Position numbers and translations under genes: made by a program
Origin: a virus
Direction: 5' to 3' (one strand)
Virus record (IMG/VR): IMGVR_UViG_3300045988_060391
Location: 1-37,778 of that record
Length of the DNA: 37,778 bases
Shown here: positions 4,817 through 36,279 of the stretch, in pieces
Numbering within the stretch: the stretch's first letter is position 1
Layout of the letters: each line of letters begins with the position of its first letter
Notes under the pieces: model-generated
Databases searched by the model: none
What the model saw: the letters and a program-made list of their open reading frames with translations, nothing else
What the model was told of the DNA's origin: nothing

Positions 4817-5472
4817 AGGATCGCCTCCCTGTATCGGATGGTCACGGTGCCGCTGCCGCTATAACTGATTGTGTTCGCTCCCGGCCGCAGAGCCAGCTCC
4901 GGCAGGGTGTAGGTCCCGTCGGACAGGCTCCACGTTCGGCTGCCGAAGCTGAGCGACACGGACCCGGCAACGGTCACCGTCGGGATCGCGACCCGGCGGC
5001 CGTAGTTGCGGAGGATGACCTGCCGCGCCGTGCTCGATGCGGTCAGCGTCTGCACCGTCTCGTTGACGGCGAAGCGCCACGGCAGGCAGTTGGCCGTCAC
5101 GGTCAGAGCACCGTGGACCGGGTCGTTGTAGCTGATCGCAACATGTGCTCTGCCGTCCAGGTAAAAGTCCTCATAGTCCGGCAGGACGATGTTCACGCGG
5201 CGGCCGTCCAGTCGGGCCAGCAGGTCGTCGAAGATCTCCTGCCGGTCCAGTCGGGTACCCTCGCTGCTCTCGAAGGTCGCGGTCAGCGTGCGGTTACTGT
5301 AACGCGGTTCCCCCTCGGTGAGGGCCGTGGTCAGGTCCAGGTCGCCGTCGCGGCCTGGCACTGCCACGAAGTTGGACTTGTACACCGGCGCGGTCAGCGT
5401 CCAGCCGGTCAGCGTGAGCCGCCCATCCGACGCGGTGTCGTAGTCTCCGAAAAGGATTTTGCGCTTGATCAT
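4813..5472 (-). CDS. Distal tail protein (Dit)
   Basis: 219 aa immediately after the tape measure gene, with overlapping TGATG stop/start. Size and position are typical of Dit. Confidence 0.75.
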   Translation of the reverse strand: MIKRKILFGDYDTASDGRLTLTGWTLTAPVYKSNFVAVPGRDGDLDLTTALTEGEPRYSNRTLTATFESSEGTRLDRQEIFDDLLARLDGRRVNIVLPDYEDFYLDGRAHVAISYNDPVHGALTVTANCLPWRFAVNETVQTLTASSTARQVILRNYGRRVAIPTVTVAGSVSLSFGSRTWSLSDGTYTLPELALRPGANTISYSGSGTVTIRYREAIL

Positions 5473-11949: not shown

Positions 11950-12726
11950 TCAAATTTTGATTTTGTTTTTGATCTCCACGAGACGGGCGCGGAGCGCCAG
12001 CTCGGTGGCTTTCGTGTCCGGTGCTGGGTCGGGCTCATCGTTCGGCTCGTACATGACCTCGCCGGTGTAGCTCTTAGACACGCCGGCGGCACGCTGCGCG
12101 GGAACGGCCACCAGACTGAACTCGTAGGCGTCAGTGGCGCCGTCCAGCTTGAAGGTGCAGACCGTCGGGCCGCCTTCCTTGTCGTAGGTCTTACCCGGCC
12201 AGTGACGGCAGTAGGTCTTGGCGTTATCCGTGCCGCAGATGCTGCAGATCGCGGACGACGCGCGGAAGCCGACGCTGCCTTCCTTCTTGATGCCGGCCTT
12301 GATCTCGGTGATCAGGTCCTTGTTGCTCTCGGTTCGCACCATGTAGGCGTGCGCCTTGAGCTGCACATAGGCCTCGCCGCTCTTGGTGACTGTCTTGTCC
12401 GACGCCACGAGCTCCGTGGCGTAGATGCGGGCCACCTGGTTGTCGGCGCTGGCGTAGTGGTCCTTGATGACGGTCTTGCCGATGAAGAGCTTCTGCAGCT
12501 CTTTCAGCGCCTTGACGGTGAAGTGCTCGTGCTGGCGGTCCACCTCGTTGTCGCACAGGACAGCGGAGAAGGTGAACACGTCCTCAGCTGCCAGCGGCTC
12601 CAGGGTGTACTTGTTGATCGCCCGCAGCTCGGCCTCCGTGACCTCCTGGGCCTCCAGTGCCGCAGCCTTGTAGATCAGCCCGGCAGGATCTCGCTCAGGG
12701 CCTCGGTTATCGCGGTTTTTATCCAT
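11950..12726 (-). CDS. Prohead maturation protease (HK97/S78-like)
   Basis: 258 aa between portal and capsid. It has a candidate His (VIKDH) and Ser (KEGSVGF) and a strong RBS, GAGGAGGA. Confidence 0.65.
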   Translation of the reverse strand: MDKNRDNRGPERDPAGLIYKAAALEAQEVTEAELRAINKYTLEPLAAEDVFTFSAVLCDNEVDRQHEHFTVKALKELQKLFIGKTVIKDHYASADNQVARIYATELVASDKTVTKSGEAYVQLKAHAYMVRTESNKDLITEIKAGIKKEGSVGFRASSAICSICGTDNAKTYCRHWPGKTYDKEGGPTVCTFKLDGATDAYEFSLVAVPAQRAAGVSKSYTGEVMYEPNDEPDPAPDTKATELALRARLVEIKNKIKI

Positions 12727-13997
12727 GCTTTGTCCTCCTCTCTCGTCGTTGTGGCCGCAGGCACCGCAGCCTGCGTATATTGCGCCCCGGTGAACTGCAC
12801 CGGGATCGCTGCACCGTTGCCCAGGAGGTTGTCCCCGCCTTCCTTGTGCGGCAGGTCGAGGCGCTCACGGGCTTCGTTCGGTGTCATGAGGAAGTTGGAC
12901 ACGGCCGCGCTCAGCGTGTTGATCTGGGTCTGCTGGTCAGCTCTCAGCAGCACGCTGGTGTTGAACTTGGTCACAAAGCCGGCCGCGGCCTCGCCGTCGA
13001 GCAGGAGCTTCCACTGGAGCTCCTCCTCGTACTGCTTAATGTTAAAGAGCAGCGTGTCCACCAGGAAGCTCAGCTGCTGCGCTTCGGCGTTGGCGTAGCT
13101 GCTCTTGGAATAGTCGCCGACCTGGTTGGGCTTCACGCCGAAGGCGGCGGCGATCTGGAGGGCGCTGTACTGCTTGACCTCCAGGAACTGACTGTCGGCC
13201 AACTTGAGGCTGAGCGGCGTCAGCGTCATGCCGATGGGCATGGGTATGATGTTCTCGATGCCTTTGCTCTTGAGCTCGCCCTTGGCGTAGGACTCGATGC
13301 CCTTGGTCAGCTGCTCGACGCTGGCGTCTTTCAGGTTTCCGGTGTACTGCAGCACGGCCTTGGCAGTCATGCCGCTGTCGTACATCTTGTTCACCATCTT
13401 CTGGGCCTTGATGTTGCCCTGGATGGTGCTGGCCAGCTGCTCGCGCACGGACACGCCGACCAGGCCGTCGAGCGTCTGGTGGCTCTTGAAGTGCAGGATC
13501 TCCTCGCTGCCGTATGTAATGGTGCCGGCGGCGGTGCTGTAGACGTAGTAGACGTCCGGCAGATCACTCAGCTGCCTGGCGTCGTCGTACCAGACCTGCA
13601 TGCTGCGCGGATCCAGCGGCCACAGCTGTGGGTGCTCTCTGTCGCTCTCGTCGATCAGCGCGTAGGCGTTGCCGAAGTGGTTGCGGCAGTATTCCATATA
13701 AGTCCAGAACACGCTGGCGCTCATGAAGCGGTTGGGCCGCTCGTTCAGCGTCCGGTAGTAGCGGTGGCCACGGGCCGGCGTGACGCCGCGATCCGGGGTG
13801 GCCTGCATGAGCCGCAGCGGCAGCTTGCCGATGCTCTCGCTCAGCACCTTGATGCAGGCGAAGTAGGTGGCCTCACTCAGCTCACTGTTGGCGACGCCAT
13901 GCACGCCGAGCCAGTTGAGCAGCTGGTCGAGCGTCATCTGCTCGGACGTGTCCGCGCTTTTCCTGCGGCGGCTGCGCAGGCGGTCAAAAAATCCCAT
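12675..13997 (-). CDS. Portal protein (HK97 family)
   Basis: 440 aa after TerL. The 3' end overlaps the protease start by 52 nt. Confidence 0.9.
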   Translation of the reverse strand: MGFFDRLRSRRRKSADTSEQMTLDQLLNWLGVHGVANSELSEATYFACIKVLSESIGKLPLRLMQATPDRGVTPARGHRYYRTLNERPNRFMSASVFWTYMEYCRNHFGNAYALIDESDREHPQLWPLDPRSMQVWYDDARQLSDLPDVYYVYSTAAGTITYGSEEILHFKSHQTLDGLVGVSVREQLASTIQGNIKAQKMVNKMYDSGMTAKAVLQYTGNLKDASVEQLTKGIESYAKGELKSKGIENIIPMPIGMTLTPLSLKLADSQFLEVKQYSALQIAAAFGVKPNQVGDYSKSSYANAEAQQLSFLVDTLLFNIKQYEEELQWKLLLDGEAAAGFVTKFNTSVLLRADQQTQINTLSAAVSNFLMTPNEARERLDLPHKEGGDNLLGNGAAIPVQFTGAQYTQAAVPAATTTREEDKAWIKTAITEALSEILPG

Positions 13998-14015
13998 TGT
14001 TTGCTCCTCTCCTTT

Positions 14016-15746
14016 TTACTTCCAGCCCATGAGGGCGAGGTAGTTGTCCAGCTCGCCGTCCACGTCCACGGTGGTCTCGCCGCCGTTGGTTATCAGCATG
14101 AGCGCGTGGGCGTCGATCAGGGCGTCCACCGGGTCGATGCGCTTGAAACGTGCGCCCGGTTTCTTGTCCACCTTGATCTCCTCGAAGCTGTTCCTCACGA
14201 TCGCGGCGTTGACCATGGACCAGGTCAGCAGCTCGTTGGTCCGGTCATATTCCAGCCGCTGGCCTTTTGTCAGCAGCTGCACGGCCACGGTGGCGTCGTT
14301 CAGGCTGCGGGCCGACTGCGTGATCGTCACGACCGGGCAGCCGAGCGCCTCCAGGTCCTGCATGATGCCGGCCGCGTTGTGCGGGTCGACGCCGATGCCC
14401 AGGAAGTTGAGCCCGAAGTGGTCGCGGATCTCGGCCAAATGCGACACGATGAATTTGTAGTCGTTCATGAAGTCCGTGGACCCGCCGGTGACGGTGATCA
14501 AGCCGGCGGCTTCCCATAGGTCATACGGCGCCAGGTCCGTCTCGACGTGCTCGTCCAGGCGGCCGCGCGGCATGAAGCTGTGGCTGTAGAGGTAGTACTT
14601 CTCGCCGATCGGAAACTCCAGGGTCAGCGTGGTCAGGTCTCCACCGCTGGACAAGTCGAGCCCGACCCAGCAGTCGCGGTTCCCGGCGGCCACGATGTCG
14701 GCCAGGCTCCGGTCGGATCCGCAGGCTTTCCACGCCTCCGGGTCGATGAACTGGTCGTCCGTGTTTTTCACCCACATGTTGAGGCACTTGGTCAAGAAGT
14801 CGCGCAGCTCACTACCGCCCATGTCTCGGGCCGTCTGTGCGTCCTGCCGCAGCGTCTCCATGCGCTCCTCGTCCAGGCACAGGAACGGGTTGGCCTTGAT
14901 CCAGTTGGCCTCGTCCCAGATGTCGTCGCCGGGGTCGAGGCAATAGATGTCGATAAAAAAATCCTCCGCGGTTGTGAGCCCGCGCAGGACCTTGACGGCA
15001 TAGTCGTCCATCTCCTTGCAGAAGCTGTTCAGCTGATCGCCTCGCGTGGTGATCATGCTGACAAGCGTCTCCGGGAGGGACCTGGTGCCGTTGTATATTG
15101 CTTTATAAATTTTATTATCCTTGTGCTGGTGCAGCTCGTCGATGCTGGAGAAGATGCTGCGGAAGCCGTCGTCCAGACCGGCCTCGCGGCTCAGGGCCTC
15201 GATCGTGCAGTGCGTTTCCGTGGCCTCGATGGTGCTCTTGTAGTCCTTCACGCGGAACAGCTCGCCGAGGTCCGGGTCGATGCCGACGAACTTGCTCATC
15301 TCCTCCCAGGCCAGCCGCGCCTGCCGCTTCTTGGTGCCGACCGTGAACAGCTTGCCGTGGCGATAGCCGGAGAAGCCGGCGATGTAGGTGCCCAGGATGC
15401 CGTTCTCGAAGGTCTTGCCGTTCTGGCGGGCCATGGACTTGTAGCGGCGACGAAAGCGCCGCTTGTCGTTGGCCACCTTCTTCCAGCCAAAGGTGCAGCC
15501 GATGTCGAAGGCCTGGGTCTCGGTCAGCCGGACCGGCTTGGGCTCGGCGCCCTCGGCGATCGTCAGCGTCTCCGCGTAGGCGAGCACCTGCTCGGACGCT
15601 TCCGCGTCCCAGTAGTATGGAAACTCCTCGGTACGCTGCCGGCTCAGATCGCGCAGATGGCGCTGACAGGCAAGCCTGTGCAGCTCACCGTGCCCTGGCG
15701 CTCCGGCGACGACGGCCCGCGCGTGTTCGGTGCAGCGGTCTCTCAT
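14016..15746 (-). CDS. terL: Terminase large subunit
   Basis: 576 aa with an ATGA overlap to TerS. The layout is Terminase_1-like, with an ATPase followed by a nuclease. Confidence 0.9.
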   Translation of the reverse strand: MRDRCTEHARAVVAGAPGHGELHRLACQRHLRDLSRQRTEEFPYYWDAEASEQVLAYAETLTIAEGAEPKPVRLTETQAFDIGCTFGWKKVANDKRRFRRRYKSMARQNGKTFENGILGTYIAGFSGYRHGKLFTVGTKKRQARLAWEEMSKFVGIDPDLGELFRVKDYKSTIEATETHCTIEALSREAGLDDGFRSIFSSIDELHQHKDNKIYKAIYNGTRSLPETLVSMITTRGDQLNSFCKEMDDYAVKVLRGLTTAEDFFIDIYCLDPGDDIWDEANWIKANPFLCLDEERMETLRQDAQTARDMGGSELRDFLTKCLNMWVKNTDDQFIDPEAWKACGSDRSLADIVAAGNRDCWVGLDLSSGGDLTTLTLEFPIGEKYYLYSHSFMPRGRLDEHVETDLAPYDLWEAAGLITVTGGSTDFMNDYKFIVSHLAEIRDHFGLNFLGIGVDPHNAAGIMQDLEALGCPVVTITQSARSLNDATVAVQLLTKGQRLEYDRTNELLTWSMVNAAIVRNSFEEIKVDKKPGARFKRIDPVDALIDAHALMLITNGGETTVDVDGELDNYLALMGWK

Positions 15747-16252
15747 TCATCCCCCGCCGCCTTTCCGAAGCGGGCGAACTTGTTGACCTTTGGTTCCTCC
15801 TCGGTGACCGGCACCTGCAGCTTGCAGCGTGAGCTGATTGTCAGGCCGAGCGCAGCCGCAGCGGTCTGGGCCTGCTTGAAGTAACGGTCGCACCGCTTGT
15901 CCAGCGTGTCCAGCATGGTCGCCCAGGTCAGCAGCTCCTCCGCGTCGACGTTCTTCGGCCGCTGCTTCTGCAGCGAGCGGAGATCCTTCACAGTCAGGAC
16001 ATAAAGGTCCTGGGCTGTCAAGTAGCGGGCCAGGGTGTCGCAGTCTGTCTCCCCGAAGATCCCGATCTTCTGCAGCTGGCCCGCTATCGTGTCAAACTGT
16101 TTTTTTTGTTTGGCCGTCAAGAAGGACGGCGCGACGATCTCGTCGGTGCAGGGCTTGACCTCCTGGGCCCGGCGTGTCGCGATCTCTTCCTTTGTCAGGT
16201 GTTTCTTGCCGTTTGCAATGACCAGCTCTATCGGCTGGCGCGGTCCTGCCAT
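15743..16252 (-). CDS. terS: Terminase small subunit (P27 family-like)
   Basis: 169 aa directly upstream of and coupled to TerL. RBS GAGGAGGA. Confidence 0.8.
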   Translation of the reverse strand: MAGPRQPIELVIANGKKHLTKEEIATRRAQEVKPCTDEIVAPSFLTAKQKKQFDTIAGQLQKIGIFGETDCDTLARYLTAQDLYVLTVKDLRSLQKQRPKNVDAEELLTWATMLDTLDKRCDRYFKQAQTAAAALGLTISSRCKLQVPVTEEEPKVNKFARFGKAAGDE

Positions 16253-16274
16253 GCTGTCGTCCTCCTCTCTGTGT

Positions 16275-17003
16275 TTATTTCAGCAGCCGGTTGACCTCGG
16301 CCTGTACCTGGTTATAAAACCACGCGCCGAGCTTCTGCTTTCTTTCCTCGCCGTTGCCCCACTTGGCGTCGATGACATCCCGCGCCATTGCCGTGATGTT
16401 CACCGTCTTGTCCGATATCTCCGGCAGCGGCTCGCCGTCGAAGTAGGACAGCGGCACATGCATGAGGTCAAGATCGAGCGGGTCGCCACGGTACTGGTGC
16501 ATGACACACTGCCCGCTCAAATCGGGATAATTTACCCCGTCATTCTGGCCCCAGGCGGCGATCCACTTGTCGAAGCCGGTCTCGCCGATTTTTGTGCCGA
16601 ACCAGCTCAGGCTGGCGTACACGCCGGTCATGTTCCCTGCGTCCTTCATCGCCTGGCAGAACGTCTTGCACATGTCTGTGATTGTAGCGTTCGAGGGGAA
16701 GCCGTGCTGCATCTTGTAGCCGTCGGCGTCCTCCATATCAAACCACACGCCGAGGCGGGGCTTGCGACCGTTGAGGAAGCGCAGACACCGCTCAGCCTCC
16801 AGCTTGGCCGTCTGCATGTTCAGCGCATAGCTGTACCAGTAGACGCCCCACGGGATACCGAGCGCGTCGCATTTGGCAATGTTGCGCTCTGCCCATGGGT
16901 CTACGGTGCGCACGCCGTAGCCCCCGCGGAGGATGACAAAGCCGTCTTTGTATGGTGTCAGGTCAATGTCACCCTGCCACTGGGAAATGTCTATACCGTT
17001 CAT
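16275..17003 (-). CDS. Endolysin: GH25 muramidase with a C-terminal Cpl-7-like wall-binding repeat
   Basis: The start at 17003 is set by an ATGA overlap with the upstream stop. It carries MNGIDISQWQG (a GH25 hallmark) and the C-terminal sequence VIDAKWGNGEERKQKLG...VQAEVNRLL. No signal peptide. Confidence 0.85.
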   Translation of the reverse strand: MNGIDISQWQGDIDLTPYKDGFVILRGGYGVRTVDPWAERNIAKCDALGIPWGVYWYSYALNMQTAKLEAERCLRFLNGRKPRLGVWFDMEDADGYKMQHGFPSNATITDMCKTFCQAMKDAGNMTGVYASLSWFGTKIGETGFDKWIAAWGQNDGVNYPDLSGQCVMHQYRGDPLDLDLMHVPLSYFDGEPLPEISDKTVNITAMARDVIDAKWGNGEERKQKLGAWFYNQVQAEVNRLLK

Positions 17004-17506
17004 TTCCATGTCCCTCCAACCTTGATTTTTGCCACGGCGTCCTTCCAGACGCCGCCGATCTTGACCTTGACCTGTGCTGGCTTCCATACGCCGCCAATTT
17101 TCACGTAAACCGTAGCGCCGAACAACGCAGGCGCGGTAAAGGTCGCGGTTTGGACGGCGACCGCGGCGGAAACGCCGCCGACCTTTGCGGTTATCGTTAC
17201 GCCCTCTCCGGCTTCACCGACGAAATAGAACGTTGTCGTTCCTTTTGATACGTCGAAGGACGTGTCCGCCGTGCCGGTAACGCCGCCAATGTCGCACCGG
17301 AGCGTCCATTTGTTTGGAGGGTAGTATGTGCCGTATTCGCCATTGTCGCTCGTGAGCACTGCTTTAATGGCAAACTGCCCGCCATTCAGTCGTGCGATAT
17401 ACAGTTTTCCGGTAAGTCTCCAATGGTTCGAGACTCCCGAAATACTTTTTTCCTGCTCCCAAGCGCTTCCCGACGGCAGCGTCGGAGCGGTCTGTGACCA
17501 CGCCAT
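17000..17506 (-). CDS. Fiber-associated protein with C-terminal GGxWK tandem repeats
   Basis: 168 aa ending VYVKIGGVWKPAQ / VKVKIGGVWKDAV / AKIKVGGTWK. It is coupled to the lysin gene. Confidence 0.5.
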   Translation of the reverse strand: MAWSQTAPTLPSGSAWEQEKSISGVSNHWRLTGKLYIARLNGGQFAIKAVLTSDNGEYGTYYPPNKWTLRCDIGGVTGTADTSFDVSKGTTTFYFVGEAGEGVTITAKVGGVSAAVAVQTATFTAPALFGATVYVKIGGVWKPAQVKVKIGGVWKDAVAKIKVGGTWK

Positions 17507-17516
17507 TCAGCTCACC

Positions 17517-18458
17517 TCACTCCGAATACATGAGATAGATGCTCCCGTTCACGCCGATGTCGGCGGTCGGCTCAATCGGCCCGGTGTAGATGCGCCGCAC
17601 CTGATCGGCTACAAGCCCGAATTTGGTGTAGGGGATGTTGTCGGCGAGCTGACCCGCGCCGACCGTCTTGTCCGCGATCTTCTCCGCCGTAACGACCTTG
17701 CCGCCGAGATTCGCTGTGCCCACCGCACCCGCCGTGCTCGGTATCGCGCCGACCTGGTCTGCAGTGTAGTCGCCGGCCGTAGGCTCGACGGTCCCGCTGC
17801 GGCCGTTGAACGACATGACGCCGCCGCCGGCAGCGTTTGCGGCCTGTGCGGCCCAGTACTTCGCGTTGTTGTGGTACGTCTCGTCAGAGCTCGGCACCTC
17901 GACGCCGCCGCGCTTTCCGATCGCCCAGGCCTCGCTGGTCTGCGCGGTCTTGGTCACGGACGCTGCAGCGGTCTTGGCTTGCTGCGCGGCTGCGGTGGCC
18001 GTAGCGGTCGCAGCAGCTGCGGCCTGCTGCGCTATGCCGTTCACGTTTTCGACGGCGTTCGTGACGTCCTCGCGCAGCCCCGCGAGCTGGCCAAGGATCT
18101 GCTGGTACAGCGCCGGCGTAGGGTCGGGCACCTCAGTGACGGCACCGGCCACGATGCGGTAGCCCAGCAGCTCAGAGGTGCGCACCGTGCCGGTCTCGTT
18201 CACGCCGACGACGCCGAAGTACATGCGGCCCGCCCCGGCCGTAGCCTCCGGCGGGATCACGCACTTGTCGGAGCTGTCCAGGATGCTGTACGAGCACTCG
18301 CCGCGCTCGCGGAAAAAGACGCAGGTCTTGCCGAAGCCGTCCCACTGCTCGCAAAAGTCGAACTCTATAAAGTTTTCATTGACGCCGCCCGACGCGAGCA
18401 CCGGGCTGTCGGTTATAGCCAGCACCTGGTCGGTGCAGCTCACTTTGATCGTGCTCAT
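17517..18458 (-). CDS. Tail fiber / baseplate upper protein-like (BppU N-domain-like)
   Basis: 313 aa. The N-terminal domain resembles BppU_N, followed by an Ala/Gln-rich coil. Fiber motifs: NAKYWAAQA and SFNGRSGTV...GDYTADQVGA. Confidence 0.65.
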   Translation of the reverse strand: MSTIKVSCTDQVLAITDSPVLASGGVNENFIEFDFCEQWDGFGKTCVFFRERGECSYSILDSSDKCVIPPEATAGAGRMYFGVVGVNETGTVRTSELLGYRIVAGAVTEVPDPTPALYQQILGQLAGLREDVTNAVENVNGIAQQAAAAATATATAAAQQAKTAAASVTKTAQTSEAWAIGKRGGVEVPSSDETYHNNAKYWAAQAANAAGGGVMSFNGRSGTVEPTAGDYTADQVGAIPSTAGAVGTANLGGKVVTAEKIADKTVGAGQLADNIPYTKFGLVADQVRRIYTGPIEPTADIGVNGSIYLMYSE

Positions 18459-18574
18459 GTCCGTGTCCTCCTTGGTTTTTAGCTTAATAAGCGATTTTTG
18501 TTTATTGTAGGGACTTTTTGCTGCAAAACAGGCCTTCTGTGACCGTTATCTTCCATGTGTTAATTATTTTTTGA

Positions 18575-18633
18575 CCCGCCCCCTGCCATTTTCCACTGAA
18601 AAAGTTCACGGGGAAAAATTCACAGGGGGCGGG
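18575..18633. repeat. 11-bp GC-rich inverted repeat enclosing TTCAC direct repeats
   Basis: CCCGCCCCCTG (18575-18585) pairs with CAGGGGGCGGG (18623-18633). The loop holds TTCCAC, GTTCAC and ATTCAC about 13-14 nt apart. Confidence 0.6.
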
Positions 18634-18636
18634 GTG

Positions 18637-19083
18637 TTATCGTTCGATCGTTCGCAGGTCGATAACCCCGGGCTGCTCAGCCTTGCCGCTCTTGTTGTGC
18701 CGTCGGTTGTGACAGCTCACGCACACGGCCTCCAGGTTGTCCCAGTCGAGGCGCCGGTCCCATCCGGTGCTGGTCTGAATCGGATCCTTGTGATGAACCT
18801 CGACGGCCAGATGCTTGCAGCCTTCCAGCTGCGCCTCGCACTTGTACTCCTTCGCCTGCAGGTACGCGCGGCTCAGGGCCTTCCAGTCCTTGGACCGGTA
18901 GAAGGTCAGGTACTTGGGGTCGCGCTTCTTGTTGTATGTCTTGTTATATTTCTGCTGCTTGTAGGCACGCCGGCGCTCTATGGCCTCAGCCGCCTGGGCC
19001 TCAGCCTCTGGCCTGCATGCTGCACAGTAGGAGACGCCGACGGGCACCAGGCGCCCACAGCGTGGACATGGATGATAAACCAT
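18637..19083 (-). CDS. HNH endonuclease (terminase-associated type)
   Basis: 148 aa with N-terminal CxxC...CxxC and the motif VHHKDP...NLEAVCVSCHNRRH. RBS GGAGGG. Confidence 0.85.
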   Translation of the reverse strand: MVYHPCPRCGRLVPVGVSYCAACRPEAEAQAAEAIERRRAYKQQKYNKTYNKKRDPKYLTFYRSKDWKALSRAYLQAKEYKCEAQLEGCKHLAVEVHHKDPIQTSTGWDRRLDWDNLEAVCVSCHNRRHNKSGKAEQPGVIDLRTIER

Positions 19084-19102
19084 TCAATCCCTCCAGTGTG
19101 TT

Positions 19103-19117
19103 CCCGCCCGCCCACCC
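19103..19117 (-). other. Canonical G-quadruplex motif GGGTGGGCGGGCGGG on the late-sense strand
   Basis: The plus strand reads CCCGCCCGCCCACCC. That gives four G3 runs with 1-nt loops, about 10 nt upstream of the HNH Shine-Dalgarno. Confidence 0.6.
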
Positions 19118-19145
19118 GCCACGCCAGTGTCTCCTATGCCGGCGC

Positions 19146-19180
19146 ACAAAAAAGGACCGAGCTCTTCTGCCCAGTCCTTC
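19146..19180 (-). terminator. Intrinsic terminator-like hairpin upstream of the first late gene
   Basis: The minus strand reads AAGGACUGGGC-AGAAGA-GCUCGGUCCUU followed by UUUU, about 65 nt before the HNH start. Confidence 0.55.
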
Positions 19181-19307
19181 ATGCTATCAATATACCACCT
19201 TATTGTGTGCCATTCCATGCCATGATGCCGCTCGTGTAAAATACATAAAAAAATTTATATGTGGCACAGCTGTACCAGGTGGAACGCACTTTTCCCAATA
19301 CCCCTAA

Positions 19308-19351
19308 AATAGGCTGTACATATACTCCTATACTACTCTGTACAGCCTATT
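19308..19351. repeat. 13-bp perfect inverted repeat (AATAGGCTGTACA / TGTACAGCCTATT), 18-nt spacer
   Basis: Read directly, at the centre of the 470-bp ORF-free region. Confidence 0.8.
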
Positions 19352-19558
19352 CTGACACTTTCACAAAATCATCGTTCCCTTTGGTACAGTTGTCCGCCAT
19401 ACTATAAAAAATCTTTATTTATCAATGGTTTTCAGGTTTTTGTTAGGGGAACAAGACCGGCCAAAAGTGTACCCAGGTGGCCAAACTTTAGGACAGTAAA
19501 GCGCGCGTTTTTATAAACCGGGCGTACCCAAACCCCGCAGGAGGGAACCAAACAGGGC

Positions 19559-19594
19559 AAAAAAGGGAACAAGGCCGGACGGTCTCGTTCCCCT
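19559..19594 (-). terminator. Rho-independent terminator ending the 20.7-19.6 kb operon
   Basis: The minus strand reads GGGAACGAGACC-GUCC-GGCCUUGUUCCC followed by UUUUUU, 10 nt after the stop at 19604. Confidence 0.75.
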
Positions 19595-19603
19595 ATCATC
19601 CTT

Positions 19604-19891
19604 TCATTTCATTAGTTCGATGTGCCGGTATGCTGCGATCTCCTCTGGTGTGAAGCCCTTCTGCAGGTAGCGCCAAACGGTGTTCCTCGGCAGGCCCAGC
19701 ATGTGAGCCCACTCGGCGGCAGTCGCCTTCCTCCCAAACCCTTGGTACATTTTGAACCTGTTTCTCGGCCGGTCTTCCCCGCCGATTACTATGACATGCG
19801 CCGGCTGCATGAGCCTACTGAGCTGCTGCTCGTCGGAGCAGCTTAGGACGGCCCGGATCGCGTCGTTTTGCAACTTGTAGAAGTCTGTCAT
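19604..19891 (-). CDS. HTH DNA-binding protein (positional candidate late-gene regulator)
   Basis: 95 aa starting at the ATG at 19891 (RBS AAGGAG). HTH: TAAEWAHMLGLPRNTVWRYLQKG. It is the last gene before the late region. The ORF-track N-terminal extension is rejected. Confidence 0.6.
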   Translation of the reverse strand: MTDFYKLQNDAIRAVLSCSDEQQLSRLMQPAHVIVIGGEDRPRNRFKMYQGFGRKATAAEWAHMLGLPRNTVWRYLQKGFTPEEIAAYRHIELMK

Positions 19892-20004
19892 GCTTTCGCT
19901 CCTTCCAGGTACAGGATCTTGGCCACGAGGTCGAGCAGGTCCGCGGCGTTGCACTGCATAACCGCCTCCATTGCTCTCAGCTTGAAATAATCCACGGTTG
20001 TCAT
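19888..20004 (-). CDS. DLLDF-motif mini-protein, copy 1 (38 aa)
   Basis: MTTVDYFKLRAMEAVMQCNAADLLDLVAKILYLEGAKA. RBS AAAGGAGA. An ATGA overlap couples it to the HTH gene. Confidence 0.6.
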   Translation of the reverse strand: MTTVDYFKLRAMEAVMQCNAADLLDLVAKILYLEGAKA

Positions 20005-20019
20005 GTTGTTCTCCTTTCC

Positions 20020-20039
20020 GGCCGGTTTGACCGCCGGCC
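20020..20039 (-). other. Intercistronic hairpin element abutting an RBS (copy 1)
   Basis: GGCCGG-N8-CCGGCC directly 5' of the GGAAAGGA Shine-Dalgarno on the sense strand. It is homologous to 20283-20302. Confidence 0.55.
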
Positions 20040-20051
20040 CCGGTTTGTCTT

Positions 20052-20267
20052 TCATTTCTCATGATTGGCCTGCCAGCTGTTGATCGTGGCGACCTCGCCG
20101 TTTTCGGCCTTGTAATAAAGGAGGAGCCCGTCGTCGTCCAGCTCCGCGCCCCAGCCCTCGAAGCTGTACTCGACGCCCTCGACCTCGATCCGCTCTGGCC
20201 AGACGGCCCCGTAGAGCTTCCACGTTTTGATCGCGACGGGCTTGCCGGTGTTCTTGGTTCTCAGCAT
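20052..20267 (-). CDS. Hypothetical protein (71 aa)
   Basis: ORF with RBS GGAAAGGA. I recognise no motif. Confidence 0.6.
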   Translation of the reverse strand: MLRTKNTGKPVAIKTWKLYGAVWPERIEVEGVEYSFEGWGAELDDDGLLLYYKAENGEVATINSWQANHEK

Positions 20268-20282
20268 GATGTAGTCCTTTCC

Positions 20283-20302
20283 GGGCGGTTTAGCCGCCGC
20301 CC
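20283..20302 (-). other. Intercistronic hairpin element abutting an RBS (copy 2)
   Basis: GGGCGG-N8-CCGCCC. Relative to copy 1, the stem substitutions are compensatory. Confidence 0.55.
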
Positions 20303-20320
20303 TTCGGCGTGGTTGAATTG

Positions 20321-20530
20321 TCAGTCCACAACAAAGTAAGGAAGATTCTTGTACTGGCTAATGTCGGGGGCTTTTGTTGTAGGCCGGAAGGCGTTGCGCC
20401 CAGTCTGTTCCTTGACCTGCTCCTTGCAGATTCGACAAGCATCCTTGGCGTTGTCCGCGCTGACAAACATGTGTTCAAGGTATTCGTGGCTGTTCTTCTT
20501 GATCCAGTAAAACACCTGATAGTTTTTCAT
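20321..20530 (-). CDS. Hypothetical protein (69 aa)
   Basis: Start MKNYQVFYWIKK at 20530, preceded by AAAGGGA. The longer track ORF is rejected because its N-terminus is Pro/Arg-rich. Confidence 0.55.
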   Translation of the reverse strand: MKNYQVFYWIKKNSHEYLEHMFVSADNAKDACRICKEQVKEQTGRNAFRPTTKAPDISQYKNLPYFVVD

Positions 20531-20636
20531 TTCAATTCCCTTTCTGCCTGTCGGCCGTCCTTGACAGACCTGAAAAAATATGATATATAAACCCCCGAAG
20601 GGGGCTGCCTTTGGGCCCGGCAGCCGGGGCGCTGGT

Positions 20637-20711
20637 TTAGGTGTCCTCGCTGGCTTCGTCCACCGTGGCGTACTCGATGCCGTCAGCTTCGTAGCCGTAG
20701 TCGGTGTACAT
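20637..20711 (-). CDS. Possible 24-aa acidic leader peptide (MYTDYGYEADGIEYATVDEASEDT)
   Basis: Strong RBS AAAGGAGG 7 nt before the ATG. It is the first ORF after the divergent promoter and is followed by a CCCCC-UUCG-GGGGG hairpin plus a U-rich tract. Confidence 0.3.
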   Translation of the reverse strand: MYTDYGYEADGIEYATVDEASEDT

Positions 20712-20784
20712 TGTCCCGCCTCCTTTCTTTCCGCTCTCGGTGGGTTCAGCACCGGGGGCGGTTTCTTTCCTCTTGACAGTTGTT

Positions 20785-20813
20785 ATTATACTATATGTCC
20801 CCATATATTTCCA
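20785..20813 (-). promoter_or_regulatory. Promoter of the 20.7-19.6 kb operon (TGGAAA-N17-TATAAT)
   Basis: The -10 element is the complement of 20785-20790 and the -35 is the complement of 20808-20813. The spacer contains operator ATATGTCCCCATAT (20793-20806). Confidence 0.5.
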
Positions 20814-20825
20814 TTGACTTTACCA

Positions 20826-20849
20826 CCAAACATTCGAGGCAATGTTTGG
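20826..20849. promoter_or_regulatory. Perfect 9-bp palindrome CCAAACATT-N6-AATGTTTGG
   Basis: Read directly, at the centre of the divergent intergenic region. Confidence 0.7.
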
Positions 20850-20854
20850 TTAAT

Positions 20855-20876
20855 TTGTATATGTACCCATATACAA
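20855..20876. promoter_or_regulatory. Perfect 9-bp palindrome TTGTATATG-N4-CATATACAA (core ATATGTACCCATAT)
   Basis: The core repeats the 14-mer at 20793-20806 with one change. It overlaps the -35 region of the RHH promoter. Confidence 0.7.
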
Positions 20877-20882
20877 AAATCA

Positions 20883-20891
20883 TGCTATAAT
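20883..20891 (+). promoter_or_regulatory. Extended -10 promoter (TGcTATAAT) for the RHH gene
   Basis: TGCTATAAT at 20883-20891, about 55 nt upstream of the ATG at 20947. Confidence 0.55.
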
Positions 20892-20898
20892 GACCTTG

Positions 20899-20914
20899 GT
20901 TGCTAAAGAGCAAC
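20899..20914. promoter_or_regulatory. Operator-like GTTGCTAAAGAGCAAC (immunity-region motif, copy 5)
   Basis: It has the same GTTGC-N6-GCAAC architecture as the sites at 35059, 35514, 35587 and 35628. It lies just downstream of the RHH -10. Confidence 0.55.
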
Positions 20915-20946
20915 TCTACACACCAGCTGGCAGAAGGAGGACCGAA

Positions 20947-21132
20947 ATGGCAGAAAAATATACGGACGCCCAGAAGAGGGCCGCAAAAAAATACCTATCA
21001 AAAATGGACGAGTTGAAGATCCGAATGGCGCCGGGCACGAAGGACCGGTGGCGGGACGCTGCCGAGGCTCGCGGCCTGTCGCTGCAGCGGTTCATAATTG
21101 ACGCCGTAGAGGCCGCGATCAGACAGGAATAA
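20947..21132 (+). CDS. Ribbon-helix-helix (Arc/CopG-like) DNA-binding protein
   Basis: 61 aa. RBS GAAGGAGG. ELKIRMAPGTKDRWRDAAEARGLSLQRFIIDAVEAAI fits a beta-strand followed by two helices. Confidence 0.7.
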   Translation: MAEKYTDAQKRAAKKYLSKMDELKIRMAPGTKDRWRDAAEARGLSLQRFIIDAVEAAIRQE

Positions 21133-21134
21133 AT

Positions 21135-21169
21135 AAAGGACCGGAAGCACGCAGCCTCCGGTCCTTTTT
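21135..21169. terminator. Bidirectional terminator between the RHH and lipoprotein genes
   Basis: GGACCGGA-N11-TCCGGTCC, flanked by a T-run on the plus strand and a U-rich tract on the minus strand. Confidence 0.8.
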
Positions 21170-21633
21170 CACGCTATTGTGTTTTCGTCCGCTTCGGCCT
21201 CGGTGAACTCGTAGGAGATGATCCACGACCCCATCGTGCTGACAACGTCCTGGACGACGACGGTCAGCTCCTGCCCGACTTCGGCGTCGGGGTTGTGCGG
21301 TGAGCAGAAGTTGAGGTGCTGCCCGCCGACCAGATTGTAACCAAAAAACGAGTTTGGTATAAATTTGGTCACTACGAACCGGACGGTCTTTCCGGTCAGG
21401 TTCTCGCCGGCGTTGAGTGCCGCCTCGAACGCCTCCGCGTTTGCGTAGTCCAGATGCGGAAGCGGCTCCGGCGTCGGTTCTGGTGTAGCTGTTGGCGTGG
21501 GCTCTGGCGTCGGTTCCGGCGTAGCTGTTGGCGTGGGCTCTGGCGTTGGTGTAGGTTCCGCGCTGCTGGATCCGCATGCTGCGAGCATTGACAGCGCAAC
21601 GATCAGCGCGATGATGGAAAACGCTTTTTTCAT
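21169..21633 (-). CDS. Secreted lipoprotein with a Pro/Thr-rich linker (moron; candidate superinfection exclusion)
   Basis: Start MKKAFSIIALIVALSMLAAC at 21633, giving a signal peptide plus the lipobox LAAC. It is followed by (EPTPTATPEPTP) repeats and then a roughly 95-aa globular domain. Confidence 0.8.
   Translation of the reverse strand: MKKAFSIIALIVALSMLAACGSSSAEPTPTPEPTPTATPEPTPEPTPTATPEPTPEPLPHLDYANAEAFEAALNAGENLTGKTVRFVVTKFIPNSFFGYNLVGGQHLNFCSPHNPDAEVGQELTVVVQDVVSTMGSWIISYEFTEAEADENTIA
21464..21558 (-). repeat. 36-bp tandem repeat (2.6 copies) encoding the PT-rich linker
   Basis: Units at 21464-21499 and 21500-21535, plus a partial unit at 21536-21558, with two or three substitutions. 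Confidence 0.85.
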
Positions 21634-21673
21634 AATGTTCCCCTTTCTGCCCGGTGCTGCCGTGGCTGGCCCC

Positions 21674-21702
21674 ATTTTATTACGGCAATTTCTCACTGTC
21701 AA
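21674..21702 (-). promoter_or_regulatory. Sigma70-type promoter of the lipoprotein gene (TTGACA-N17-TAAAAT)
   Basis: The -35 is the complement of 21697-21702 and the -10 is the complement of 21674-21679. Confidence 0.6.
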
Positions 21703-21715
21703 CGGCCCGCGGCTC

Positions 21716-21745
21716 TTGACAAGGGCCGGAGGACGGGTTCATAAT
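21716..21745 (+). promoter_or_regulatory. Back-to-back promoter TTGACA-N18-CATAAT reading toward the XRE-TM gene
   Basis: The -35 is at 21716-21721 and the -10 at 21740-21745. Its transcript would be antisense to mini-protein copy 2. Confidence 0.4.
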
Positions 21746-21888
21746 GGTCTCGGTTGCTCGGTGGCCGGTCCTCTCCGGCGGCGCTGCTCCTCGGCCAGCA
21801 GTTTGATCACGAAGTCGAGGAGATCCGCGTCGTCGCATAGTTTGACGGCCGCCACAGCGTGCGCTCTTAAAAATGTAAGTTTGTCCAC
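21739..21888 (-). CDS. DLLDF-motif mini-protein, copy 2 (49 aa)
   Basis: GTG start at 21888, preceded by AAAAGGGGGA. Sequence: (V)DKLTFLRAHAVAAVKLCDDADLLDFVIKLLAEEQRRRRGPATEQPRPL. Confidence 0.55.
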   Translation of the reverse strand: MDKLTFLRAHAVAAVKLCDDADLLDFVIKLLAEEQRRRRGPATEQPRPL

Positions 21889-22003
21889 GTCGTTTCCCCC
21901 TTTTCTGAAATAACAATAGCAAGCACCTCCCCGCGCTGCAATGGCCAAACCCGGGCAGCGTGGTAAGAGCTTGACCATAAATGGAAAATAGGAAGGGAAA
22001 GGA

Positions 22004-22417
22004 ATGCTGCACGATCAATTAAAGGAGCTTAAAAACCGGAAGAACCTAACAGCACAGGAGATTGCCGACCGCTCCGGCGTCCCGCTCAGCACGGTGAACA
22101 AGATCCTCAGCGGCCAGACAGATAACCCGGCCTTCCGCGCCGTGTGCGACATGGTAAAGGCTATGGGCGGCTCCGTGGACGAGCTGGTCGGCATTTCGCG
22201 GCGCAGCGATCATCCGTCGGTTGACGACATGGCCGACGCCTGGGTCTCCGCGGTGCGTCCTATGCAGGACGCGATGGACGAGAAGGACAAGGAGATCCAA
22301 AACAAGGACAAGTGGATCAATCGTCTGTTCTGGACGTGCCTGGTCCTCTTTTCCGTTCTTGTATTTTTCCTCGCCTTCGATCTTTTCAGCCCGAACGTCG
22401 GGTGGATCCGAGACTAA
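22004..22417 (+). CDS. XRE-family HTH regulator with a C-terminal transmembrane anchor
   Basis: 137 aa. HTH: LTAQEIADRSGVPLSTVNKILSG. C-terminal TM: LFWTCLVLFSVLVFFLAFDLF. Confidence 0.8.
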   Translation: MLHDQLKELKNRKNLTAQEIADRSGVPLSTVNKILSGQTDNPAFRAVCDMVKAMGGSVDELVGISRRSDHPSVDDMADAWVSAVRPMQDAMDEKDKEIQNKDKWINRLFWTCLVLFSVLVFFLAFDLFSPNVGWIRD

Positions 22418-22450
22418 AAACGGCCCAGGGTATGACGCCCTGGGCCGTTT
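22418..22450. terminator. Bidirectional terminator (XRE-TM gene / end of the early operon)
   Basis: AAACGGCCCAGGG-N6-CCCTGGGCCGTTT, followed by TCTTTTTT on the plus strand and a T-run on the minus strand. Confidence 0.85.
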
Positions 22451-22455
22451 CTTTT

Positions 22456-22995
22456 TTATAACCCATTGCCGCGCACCAGAAGGTCCTGCTGGCCGCATGG
22501 CGTGAACTCGTGGCACTTGCCGCCGTTGTGGACGCACATGGGCACCAGCAGCCCGTCGAGCTCAGGGCAGGCCTCGATGGCCAGCTGGCACATGGACCGC
22601 ACGACGGCGCGCGTCTCGACGGCAGCAGCGAGGCACAGGCGCTTGTTGGCGATCACTTGCATCGCCTCGGCGTTGACGGACCAGATCATATCCACCGGCG
22701 CGTCCTGCGGGGCGCTGGTGCGATCGTAGACGCGCTGGCGGTCGTTGCGCTGCGTGCGGACGTAGGGCTGACACCCGACGTGGTGGCGGACCAGGTGCAT
22801 GGCTACCCAGTAGGGCACCTCCAGCCGGAACACGAAGCGCAGCTCGCGGATTGGGCTGTGCCGCGCTTCGAGGATCCGATGCTTCCACTCGCTGGTCGGC
22901 GGCGTCGTGGCCTTCTTGCCGACAGTCACCAGAGTGCATGCCTTGACGAGGGCCCATTCCGCCTCGGTCGGTGCTTTGATGAGATCAATCTGCAT
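22456..22995 (-). CDS. ThyX-like protein with a degenerate ThyX motif
   Basis: 179 aa. HSPIRELRFVFRLE..VAMHLVRHH and KRLCLAAAVETRAVVRSM resemble the ThyX core. However, the RHRxxSxxxxSxR motif reads RHHVGCQPYVRTQR. Confidence 0.5.
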   Translation of the reverse strand: MQIDLIKAPTEAEWALVKACTLVTVGKKATTPPTSEWKHRILEARHSPIRELRFVFRLEVPYWVAMHLVRHHVGCQPYVRTQRNDRQRVYDRTSAPQDAPVDMIWSVNAEAMQVIANKRLCLAAAVETRAVVRSMCQLAIEACPELDGLLVPMCVHNGGKCHEFTPCGQQDLLVRGNGL

Positions 22996-23407
22996 TTTTC
23001 TCTTCCTCCTGTTTTTCCAGTTTTTGAAGCGCCGCAGAGTGCGCCCTGTGGACCTGGCGCCAGCTGTAGGACATGATCACGCAGATGTCCTCCCACTTGG
23101 CGCCGTCGATGTAGCGCAGCCGGAAGATCTCCCGCTCGCGTGGCCCCAGCGTCTCGATGAGCTTCTCGACCTCCAGCTGCGCGGCGGTCAGCTCCTCGAT
23201 GCAGCGGCGGTACCGGCCGCGCAGCTCCTCGGCCTGGGCCACCAAGTCGGTCAGCTTGTCCGGGTCCTTCGACGGGCTGCCGGGCATGCCGGTGAGCACC
23301 TGAATCCGCGGTGCCGTCATGCGCGCCTCCAGGTCGGCCAGCATGCGCACCAGCTGCCGCAGCTCGCGCCTGCGGTCGCCATAGCCTCGCAGCTTCTCCT
23401 TTACCAT
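22985..23407 (-). CDS. Sigma-70 region-4-like transcription factor (candidate late activator)
   Basis: 140 aa. REREIFRLRYIDGAKWEDICVIMSYSWRQVHRAHSAALQKL matches a sigma region 4 HTH. Confidence 0.65.
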   Translation of the reverse strand: MVKEKLRGYGDRRRELRQLVRMLADLEARMTAPRIQVLTGMPGSPSKDPDKLTDLVAQAEELRGRYRRCIEELTAAQLEVEKLIETLGPREREIFRLRYIDGAKWEDICVIMSYSWRQVHRAHSAALQKLEKQEEEKNAD

Positions 23408-23727
23408 TGCGCGGACCCCCTCAGCTTCGCCTCGATCTCATGCGGCCGAAGGCGCCGCGCCTCCGCGTCCTTCATGATCGCCACATAATGGCCATAGCTG
23501 ACATGGGCTGCCCGGGCCTCGGCGTTGACCTTCGCGAGCGTTTTGGCAGCCGTCTCACCGCGTGCTTTCCGCGCTGCTTGCTCCCGTGCGCCGCGATGGT
23601 ACGCTTCGTTCTGCAGCCGGCGCCGGTTCTCTGCATGGCACTCAGGGCCGCACGTTTTGCGGTTTCCGTCGTAGCGGCCGATCTCGAACTCCTTGCCGCA
23701 GATGACGCACAATCCGATCATTCTCAT
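23401..23727 (-). CDS. Zinc-ribbon protein, unknown function
   Basis: Start at 23727 (RBS GGGAGGAGGG). CVICGKEF...CGPECH. Confidence 0.55.
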   Translation of the reverse strand: MRMIGLCVICGKEFEIGRYDGNRKTCGPECHAENRRRLQNEAYHRGAREQAARKARGETAAKTLAKVNAEARAAHVSYGHYVAIMKDAEARRLRPHEIEAKLRGSAQW

Positions 23728-35058: not shown

Positions 35059-35074
35059 GTTGCTATTTAGCAAC
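35059..35074. promoter_or_regulatory. Operator-like palindrome GTTGCTATTTAGCAAC (O1)
   Basis: 7-bp perfect arms GTTGCTA/TAGCAAC, overlapping the stop codon of the Cro-like gene. Confidence 0.6.
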
Positions 35075-35285
35075 TTTCATTGCAAAAAAAATACTGGTGC
35101 ACCTCCGCGGGCGAGATATCCAGCACCCGGCAGATGCGAGCGATCTCGTCCAGCTTCCAGTCGGTGCGGCCGTTCAGCTTGAGCGTCAGCGTGGCGGGCT
35201 TGATTCCCGCAACCGCGGCGAACGCCTCCTGCGTGCCATACACCTCGCGGATCCGGCCGCGGAGCTTTGCGTAGTTTTTCGGCAT
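35067..35285 (-). CDS. Cro-like HTH regulator
   Basis: 72 aa from the ATG at 35285 (RBS AAAGGAGGT). MPKNYAKLRGRIREVYGTQEAFAAVAGIKPATLTLKLNG. Confidence 0.7.
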   Translation of the reverse strand: MPKNYAKLRGRIREVYGTQEAFAAVAGIKPATLTLKLNGRTDWKLDEIARICRVLDISPAEVHQYFFCNESC

Positions 35286-35586: not shown

Positions 35587-35602
35587 TTTGCTTTTTAGCA
35601 AT
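35587..35602. promoter_or_regulatory. Operator TTTGCTTTTTAGCAAT (O3)
   Basis: TTGC-N6-GCAA core between the divergent promoters. Confidence 0.5.
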
Positions 35603-35627
35603 TTAACCGAAAATTTTTTATATTTTT

Positions 35628-36163: not shown

Positions 36164-36279
36164 CAGCTCACTCCTTCGTGGGTCGCTATGATTATATTTC
36201 ACAAAATAGAACAAACAGTGCGGAAACTGTGGCAAGTTTTTGACAAATAAAAAAATGGGTTTTAATGGGGGGAAATAAT

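Follow-up and report, generated by a model that had tools for sequence, protein, structure and literature searches.

What purpose could three related mini-proteins of 38–49 amino acids (aa) serve in a single phage? The question is raised by IMG/VR virus record IMGVR_UViG_3300045988_060391, positions 1 to 37,778 (hereafter the window, meaning the whole stretch of DNA that was analysed), which is 37.8 kb long, has 61% G+C and shows the gene layout of a temperate tailed phage, with most of its genes on the minus strand. An initial annotation had proposed that three short minus-strand open reading frames (ORFs) with good Shine-Dalgarno (SD) sites, here called c1, c2 and c3, share one motif, and that each sits beside a gene for a helix-turn-helix (HTH) regulator. 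Our analysis places all three in a very large family that is not private to this phage and is unnamed in all the libraries searched. From the genomic context of its members we propose, with moderate confidence, that the family consists of small anti-repressors of the phage XRE repressor, and that the three copies in the window represent differently controlled inputs.

The three mini-proteins and their family

The three ORFs are c1 (19888–20004, minus strand, 38 aa), in the lytic-strand operon just upstream of the HNH/terminase region; c2 (21739–21888, minus strand, 49 aa, GTG start), divergent from a membrane-anchored XRE gene; and c3 (36014–36163, minus strand, 49 aa, comprising a core of about 35 aa and a variable tail), between a serine integrase gene and a cI-like repressor gene. 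SD-like sequences lie 5–9 nt upstream of all three starts (GGAAAGGAG for c1; AGGGGGAA, listed as GGGGGAA, for c2; AAGGAG for c3), so that coordinates, strand and SD sites were all as first annotated. The alignment of c1 with c2 was likewise reproduced, with 13 identities that include Cys18 and the DLLD at positions 22–25. In Smith-Waterman comparisons against 3000 shuffled sequences, the similarity, which the annotation had allowed might fail such a test, proved significant (z=10.8 for c1-c2, 8.1 for c2-c3 and 6.3 for c1-c3), and no shuffle reached the observed score. Moreover, a family hidden Markov model (HMM) built from 121 other members, with the window's own close orthologues excluded, was run over 897 six-frame fragments of the window and matched exactly c1 (E=2.4e-11), c2 (E=1.9e-12) and c3 (E=3e-15); the next match had E=2.1. 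The extra length of c3 arises because the canonical stop is absent and the ORF continues to 49 aa. Since its orthologues P0008–P0010 end at 39 aa, this tail is dispensable.

When the three copies were used in a word-indexed search, nothing beyond their orthologues and a single relative of 35 aa was returned. Exhaustive searching of 1.84 billion cluster representatives with a profile turned the unrecognised motif of the initial annotation into a large unnamed family, with 231 clusters (50% identity) at E<=1e-3. Nearly all of these are free-standing proteins of 33–37 aa, with the consensus M-x5-LK-x2-IIE-x-V-x4-D-x-DLLDLILKLLI-x-E-G/S. A wider word-indexed search gave at least 1,253 clusters at 90% identity, all unnamed or labelled 'hypothetical' and many of them on contigs of 35–44 kb. 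Gene finders call the members inconsistently; more than 1,000 clusters agree in start, length and ribosome-binding site.

Searches of named collections confirmed that the family has no assigned identity. Pfam and NCBIfam scans of the three minis, of consensus-like members and of the variants of about 100 aa gave no match at E<=1, and a PHROGs scan gave a single marginal match (phrog_1169, E=0.034, for c3). A sequence search of the PDB and a fold search with a mini found no match, and neither did tblastn of two family members against 50,697 phage records. When window positions 18500–23500 were compared by blastn with sequenced phages for close relatives, one irrelevant 127-bp match was returned. 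In reference genomes, a degenerate DNA pattern found 23 stretches, about 8 of them real and all of these in metagenome-assembled genomes of Clostridia (Oscillospiraceae, Acutalibacteraceae, Lachnospiraceae and others). A protein-guided scan of reference genomes produced 35 further pattern matches, none of which survived a tblastn check, and these were discarded.

Are these ORFs translated into proteins that matter to the phage? We compared 38 distinct 29-codon cores lying outside the repressor overlap described below, in 703 pairs. The median proportion of synonymous differences (pS) was 0.80, that is, synonymous sites were saturated, while the median proportion of nonsynonymous differences (pN) was 0.41, and pN was below pS in 99% of pairs. 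The mini coding sequence is under purifying selection. Because pN stays below pS with synonymous sites saturated, the minis are proteins and not incidental ORFs; neutral evolution or lack of conservation, either of which would have spoken against the initial annotation, was not seen. An AF2 prediction based on an alignment of 112 sequences gave two helices joined by the D-x-D turn (pLDDT 82), which in c3 span residues 2–16 and 22–48. The minis are thus small acidic predicted helical hairpins, in which the second helix is very hydrophobic.

The family also has a subfamily of about 100 aa (P0104, P0144 and L025 1404–1721), in which the mini domain stands at the N-terminus and a Pro-rich linker connects it to a conserved C-terminal extension that ends in ...LPRVCGGADSLQSAA; this subfamily had no Pfam match.

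Gene arrangements around the mini-genes

One arrangement, which we call canonical, recurs in 22 distinct loci from unrelated phages, whose replication modules differ and whose integrases range from 451 to 554 aa. Here the mini is flanked by the gene of a large serine recombinase on one side and that of a short XRE repressor (116–146 aa where genes were listed) on the other, both on the opposite strand; it is divergent from int and convergent with the repressor. An integrase match was detected in 20 of these 22 overlap loci, at 32–209 nt from the mini in about 16–17 of the 22 (as also in L054) and at 531–800 nt in four; no integrase match was detected at L033 and L036. In the window, c3 is divergent from a large serine integrase gene (36280–37778, plus strand, cut by the window end; Pfam Resolvase, Recombinase and Zn_ribbon_recom) and convergent with the gene for the cI-like repressor (35684–36070, plus strand, 128 aa). 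This repressor has an N-terminal XRE HTH that resembles TP901-1 CI (PDB 6tri, 5a7l), a helical C-terminal region of the type seen beside family members in the 22 loci, and no autocleavage domain: a Pfam scan gave HTH_3 at 4e-10 only, and Peptidase_S24 was absent.

The 3' ends of mini and repressor gene overlap by 15–63 nt across the 22 loci, most often by 21 nt, and by 57 nt in the window (36014–36070), where the initial annotation had correctly described c3 as antisense to the 3' end of cI. The two frames are codon-for-codon antisense in 20 of the 22 loci (the window, L001, L013, L019 and L023 among them). In 20 loci including the window, the repressor ends with a TAA or TAG that is exactly complementary to a Leu codon of the mini, and in 18 cases this codon encodes the first Leu of the nearly invariant K-L-L; in the window, the cI stop TAA complements the c3 Leu codon TTA in K-[L]-L. 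It is this fixed antisense register that gives the canonical mini tails (...LLIAEG) and the repressor tails (...SALGxK) their form.

Two further observations concern the mini strand. At L013 a strong terminator-like hairpin (5199–5225; 11 pairs and a T run) lies about 90 nt past the mini stop, inside the repressor coding sequence, which would keep the mini transcript short and limit its antisense reach to the final ~140 nt of the repressor gene. A terminator scan also flagged a 5–6 bp inverted repeat, GTCGA...TCGAC, formed by the V-(D/E)-L-L-D codons (window 36083–36097; L013 5061–5075). Because GTC and GAC are complementary, this repeat is probably a by-product of the motif.

Upstream of the canonical minis there is a conserved promoter-like element, TTGCAA-17-TATTCT, and about 10 nt beyond it a Firmicute LexA/DinR box, GAAC-N4-GTTC, which sits 15–31 nt before the mini start codon. 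The box is perfect in 7 of the 22 canonical loci and has one mismatch in 6 more (13/22), compared with a background per 70-nt window of 0.35% for perfect boxes and 1.6% with at most one mismatch. An eighth perfect box is found at L054, which has the integrase but no overlap, and none of the non-canonical minis has one. In the window, boxes with at most one mismatch number 5 against 12.8 expected, and none is near c1, c2 or c3. The region between integrase and c3 (36164–36279), where the c3 promoter is expected, has TTGCCA-16-TGTTCT in place of TTGCAA-17-TATTCT, and its best match to GAAC-N4-GTTC, CACTGTTTGTTC, has 3 mismatches. The palindrome CGAAAATTTTCG, present in the cI/cro region and at the c3 5' end, was considered as a shared operator and rejected, its frequency being no higher than chance (20/100 shuffles).

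The cI-like gene stands at the right end of the window divergent from a DUF739 cro-like gene (35067–35285, minus strand; Pfam 6e-19), which heads the early lytic operon. The promoter of this operon is a perfect TTGACA-16-TATAAT on the minus strand (35568–35541), opposed by a weaker promoter-like site for cI on the plus strand (35595–35624). We propose that the cI and cro-like pair forms the divergent switch that an anti-repressor would flip.

A second arrangement recurs around minis like c2. As first annotated, c2 is divergent from a membrane-anchored XRE gene, at a distance of 115 nt. This gene (22004–22417, plus strand) encodes XRE137, an XRE-family regulator of 137 aa (Pfam HTH_3, 1e-8) with a C-terminal hydrophobic anchor (sequence end ...RLFWTCLVLFSVLVFFLAFDLF...). 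In L004, L019, L023, L024, L043, L055 and L066, minis lie 113–344 nt from a divergent XRE gene whose product has an N-terminal HTH_3 followed by a coiled coil; the N-terminal type of XRE137 is the same as in the HTH_3 and coiled-coil partners of L019, L023, L024 and L043, while the C-terminus of the window version is the hydrophobic anchor. The c2/XRE arrangement itself is the same in L004, L009, L010, L012 and L077, and analogous in L019, L023, L024, L043, L055 and L066. The minis divergent from XRE genes form a subtype, C-x-D-x2-LLDL[IV]YKLL, and often coexist with a canonical copy (L019, L023 and contig 3300045988_097215, the last via L066 and L072). More generally, multiple copies per phage are common, usually a canonical one and another (L019, L023, L069, L071), and contig 3300045988_090959 has three. 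Several copies per phage fit several inputs converging on one switch.

At L023 (5868–5975) the mini and the XRE gene have face-to-face promoters, TTGAAA-17-TATAAT on the plus strand for the mini and a perfect TG-extended TTGACA-17-TATAAT on the minus strand for the XRE gene; their transcripts must overlap by ~37 nt, and the layout resembles the face-to-face switch promoters of phage 186. The sequence 'TTTGTCAAG' before non-canonical minis was considered as a new operator and dropped, as it turns out to be the opposite-strand reading of the -35 box in the divergent XRE promoter. Genes for ribbon-helix-helix proteins (Arc/CopG/ParG-like) also occur beside or near minis, at L024 (2744–2941), at L034 (3973–4248) and in the window (20890–21132, plus strand); L004 and L009 carry a 71-aa HTH_26 gene in the slot of the window's ribbon-helix-helix gene.

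The setting of c1 is less constant. Its stop overlaps, as ATGA, the start of the gene for a 95-aa HTH protein (19604–19891, minus strand; weak HTH_17 and sigma r3/r4 matches), the coupling that had been annotated, and no promoter-like site was seen directly upstream of c1. In near-identical relatives the partner of c1 is this 95-aa protein, an unrelated 81-aa protein or, uncoupled, an 86-aa protein, and the 81-aa and 86-aa partners lack an HTH. As relatives have different genes downstream of c1, its association with an HTH gene is a local feature and not a conserved one. The repeated unit of regulator plus mini-protein proposed by the initial annotation thus stands for c3 and c2 but not for c1.

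The annotation had further seen a fourth, fused copy in the N-terminus of the 95-aa protein. Residues 3–21 do align in register to positions 3–21 of the family profile, covering helix 1 and the C-x-D turn (per-sequence E ~0.001; the score is reached by 2/5000 shuffles), but the signature second helix, DLLDLILKLL, is absent, and the claim of a full copy is weakly supported. Only three homologues of the protein were found; because one of them shares just the C-terminal HTH, we regard the N-terminus as a swappable module and not as a family member, although it may be the half-relic of a mini. The conserved C-terminal HTH reads FxGFGRKxxxAEWAxxxGLxRxTVWRYLQxGxTPEEIA. Late-gene activators and small packaging proteins are typically encoded where this gene lies, immediately ahead of the HNH/terminase genes.

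The alleles of c1 differ in helix 2, which is DLVAKIL in the window, DLVIKLL in L009 and DFVIKLL in L077, the last having the same amino acids as c2. This raised the possibility of conversion between the two genes, which is not supported, since the DNA has synonymous differences and no clear conversion tract; c1 alleles with a c2-like helix 2 may reflect short-tract exchange between paralogues or convergence.

Read from the right end of the window, the minus strand carries replication genes, a sigma-r4/DUF1492 protein, ThyX, the HNH endonuclease and then the packaging and structural genes. Near c2 lies a lipoprotein-like gene (21169–21633, minus strand), whose signal peptide ends in LAAC and whose product contains a Thr/Pro/Glu-rich repeat (TPEPTPTA...). 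A promoter-like site of its own (21702–21674) and a strong terminator (21167–21135) accompany the gene, which matches PHROGs 31882 and 9078, whose function is not known; it resembles a prophage-expressed moron, possibly for superinfection exclusion. Long plus-strand ORFs of up to 620 aa (12657–19239 and elsewhere in the window) have a third-position G+C of ~0.6, compared with 0.8–0.9 in the minus-strand genes; these are shadow ORFs of a G+C-rich genome and not genes.

Proposed anti-repression and its rivals

To our knowledge, what causes the lytic switch in prophages of gut Clostridia (Oscillospiraceae, Lachnospiraceae and relatives) is poorly understood. Often their repressor is a short XRE protein not open to cleavage by RecA, so the signal has to come by another route. 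The canonical repressor is a case of this kind: because it is short and has no S24 peptidase domain, RecA cannot inactivate it directly. In Gifsy prophages, which also have a non-cleavable repressor, the anti-repressors GfoA and GfhA are repressed by LexA, and by this precedent a LexA-repressed small gene next to a non-cleavable repressor points to an anti-repressor (PMC3121763). Our proposal is grounded in what this analysis showed: family membership, selection at the protein level, two recurring arrangements, LexA boxes and a codon-aligned overlap.

From these we infer repressor binding, its consequence and the role of each copy as follows. The mini-protein would bind the helical C-terminal oligomerisation region of the short, non-cleavable XRE repressor, which could then no longer oligomerise on its operators, and the early lytic promoter would be released. 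In most family members the canonical copy would be held off by host LexA, which would link DNA damage to induction; c3, the canonical copy of this window, has lost its LexA box. The second copy, c2, is probably controlled by the divergent, membrane-anchored XRE137 and would provide an SOS-independent input, and c1, presumably co-transcribed with the lytic genes, would lock in the lytic decision. The idea that the minis are free-standing helices acting as anti-repressors goes back to the initial annotation; it is favoured by their position, the two-helix prediction, the LexA box and the repressor overlap, but the neighbouring regulator need not be the target, as the annotation had assumed. For c2 in particular, XRE137 is more likely its controller, and the target the phage repressor.

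Several of our observations weigh against this proposal. The minis have no detectable similarity to the C-terminal region of the repressor (family HMM E=99), and the AF2 single-sequence model of the repressor, which is all-helical, is of low confidence (pLDDT 53) and too uncertain to define the C-terminal domain. The LexA box is absent before c3 and its L005 orthologue, where a version of the promoter is still recognisable, and a consensus scan of the minus strand of 36164–36279 found no sigma-70-like site for c3. In addition, c1 is without a conserved regulator partner. Finally, the canonical site, beside and divergent from the integrase gene, is the classic place of an excision factor.

This last point brings in the main rival, namely that the canonical copy is a recombination directionality factor, which would bind the coiled coil of the integrase and turn integration into excision. 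It would account for the position of canonical minis within 32–209 nt of a divergent large serine recombinase gene in about 16–17 of 22 loci and at L054, a placement shared by the xis gene of staphylococcal phage 80alpha, which is likewise divergent from int, and SOS control would suit such a factor. TP901-1 Orf7, a serine-integrase directionality factor, is small. The known factors of serine integrases are structurally diverse and can be small (PMC11795197). However, no integrase is near c1, c2 or at least 12 other members, which lie beside XRE or ribbon-helix-helix regulators or in lytic operons; the fixed, codon-aligned overlap involves the repressor gene and not int; and three paralogues make little sense for one integrase. 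Moreover, a phage with a non-cleavable repressor would still need an anti-repressor that responds to SOS, a role for which the early region offers no other evident candidate. We therefore consider an excision factor unlikely.

The remaining explanations we rank as less likely than anti-repression. One is that the minis target a host protein, such as LexA or RecA, a protease (as lambda cIII does FtsH) or a sporulation or signalling kinase (as the hairpin Sda does). An acidic helical hairpin with a very hydrophobic second helix is reminiscent of several known small inhibitors, the core motif is conserved across phages with differing repressors, and a general host-takeover factor might well exist as several differently controlled paralogues. 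One small phage protein is gp7 of GIL01, with 50 aa. It binds LexA (PMC4551915). However, a host target would not explain why minis are tied so tightly to the repressor gene, both physically and in register, or why they recur beside XRE regulators, and Pfam shows no similarity to the Sda, Spo0E or SinI families; we hold it to be improbable.

The association of a small ORF with an HTH gene is the signature used for finding acr-aca operons, and c1 has this appearance, being small, acidic and coupled in translation to the HTH gene that follows it. The minis could accordingly be anti-defence (anti-CRISPR-like) proteins under the control of neighbouring HTH regulators. Yet c1 does not keep its HTH partner in relatives, canonical members point towards the repressor gene from the opposite strand and share no operon with it, and LexA control and a site beside the repressor are untypical; in addition, the anti-CRISPR-type examples known to us are all larger than 35 aa. 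This makes an anti-defence role very unlikely. Least tenable of all is that the ORFs are incidental and that antisense RNA or convergent transcription acts against the repressor gene, as was first proposed for aimX: the c3 transcript must indeed run antisense into the cI 3' end, and the L013 hairpin lies inside the repressor gene, but amino acids are strongly conserved while synonymous sites are saturated, length, start and ribosome-binding site are kept over more than 1,000 clusters, c1, c2 and other non-canonical members retain the protein motif without an antisense partner, and for aimX it is the protein that was shown to act.

We thus return to small anti-repressors as the preferred reading. 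A wider picture joins its parts, and we put it forward tentatively, as possible and not as probable. One conserved anti-repressor fold of 35 residues would be the general induction trigger of a very large group of gut Clostridia prophages with serine integrases and non-cleavable repressors. Its gene would have been multiplied to wire LexA/SOS, a membrane-anchored XRE sensor and a feed-forward from the lytic operon onto one repressor, the window being a three-input version whose SOS input was lost, and the codon-for-codon antisense overlap would lock the two C-termini into changing together.

The family offers a concrete, testable candidate for the missing induction link, tiny, abundant and nameless as it is. 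If the proposal is true, a 35-residue peptide could induce or cure specific gut prophages, members with a LexA box would predict which gut prophages respond to DNA-damaging drugs, and extra copies beside sensor-like XRE regulators would point to SOS-independent induction cues. The codon-aligned overlap, in turn, would be a clean natural case of proposed interacting partners encoded on opposite strands of the same DNA.

Comparison with known systems

Anti-repressors under LexA control are familiar from enterobacterial prophages, where Tum of 186 and AntC of N15 are examples besides the Gifsy proteins. They follow the same damage-sensing logic as proposed here, but are larger, unrelated proteins whose genes do not overlap the repressor gene. 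The directionality factors of large serine integrases (PMC11795197) are, like the minis, small accessory proteins of serine-integrase phages; however, none of 35 aa with this motif is known to us, and many family members lie away from any integrase.

The c2-type loci resemble the TF-smORF modules, in which a regulator drives a small ORF whose product inactivates cI without proteolysis, giving SOS-independent induction (Silpe et al., Nature 2023, PMC10432266). There, a transcription factor, in some cases of XRE type, lies ~150 nt from the divergent small ORF, which mostly goes unannotated, compared with 115 nt for c2 and XRE137 and an analogous layout at six further loci. The small ORFs of those modules have no homologues, differ from phage to phage and lie between repA and telN in linear plasmid-like phages of Vibrio and Aeromonas, both Gammaproteobacteria (PMC10432266), whereas here one conserved family is reused in integrating phages of Clostridia.

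The mechanism that we propose is that of SinI and SinR of Bacillus subtilis, where a small helical antagonist occupies the C-terminal oligomerisation domain of an XRE repressor. SinI is homologous to the C-terminal domain of SinR, however, while the minis are not similar to the repressor C-terminus, and the Pfam SinI family had no match to the minis at E<=1. The repressor stretch ...LRADPDLFEMVLQLTKL... had looked like the mini motif by eye, and mimicry of the SinI kind was considered; given an E of 99 for the family HMM on the cI frame, a homologous mimic is not supported. The resemblance of the two C-termini, A-L-G in one and A-E-G in the other, is a by-product of the antisense codon pairing. 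AimX needs no such homology.

The closest parallel in layout is with AimX and AimC of the 'extended arbitrium' phages of Bacillus. AimC-type repressors are proteins of 80–140 aa with an HTH, a helical C-terminal oligomerisation domain and no autocleavage domain, and AimX, a helical protein of 29–80 aa, binds the oligomerisation domain of AimC, which can then neither dimerise nor bind its operators (Kabel et al., bioRxiv 10.1101/2025.11.23.689978). The aimX gene runs towards that of AimC, the two sharing 30 bp at their 3' ends, and a LexA site stands immediately upstream of it; mutants that were recoded or carried a stop codon established the protein, and not an antisense RNA, as the active product (bioRxiv 10.1101/2025.11.23.689978). 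Both systems thus have a very small helical protein (38–49 aa in the window, about 35 aa in the family) encoded convergently with a short, non-cleavable HTH repressor, and in both a cro-like gene is divergent from the repressor gene. The convergent 3' overlap holds for c3 but not for c1 or c2, and the LexA site, which stands upstream of the small ORF in the phi106 group, is found in 13 of the 22 family loci and is lacking at c1, c2 and c3.

The differences are equally clear. There is no aimR or aimP here: the upstream neighbour is a divergent serine integrase gene, without co-directional receptor and peptide genes, and the hosts are gut Clostridia and not Bacillus. AimX is highly divergent, whereas the motif of the minis is strongly conserved. 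The two are compared by layout, and an anti-repressor function of the minis is proposed, where that of AimX was measured. In addition, this phage has three paralogues, and the overlap is codon-aligned in a fixed register. The family therefore stands outside the strict AimX system, having no arbitrium genes, and it is not homologous to SinI; it is alike by layout. What is new is a very large family, novel in sequence, that brings an AimX-like layout into Clostridia phages with serine integrases. Single phages can carry several copies of it, and a codon-aligned overlap ties it to the repressor gene.

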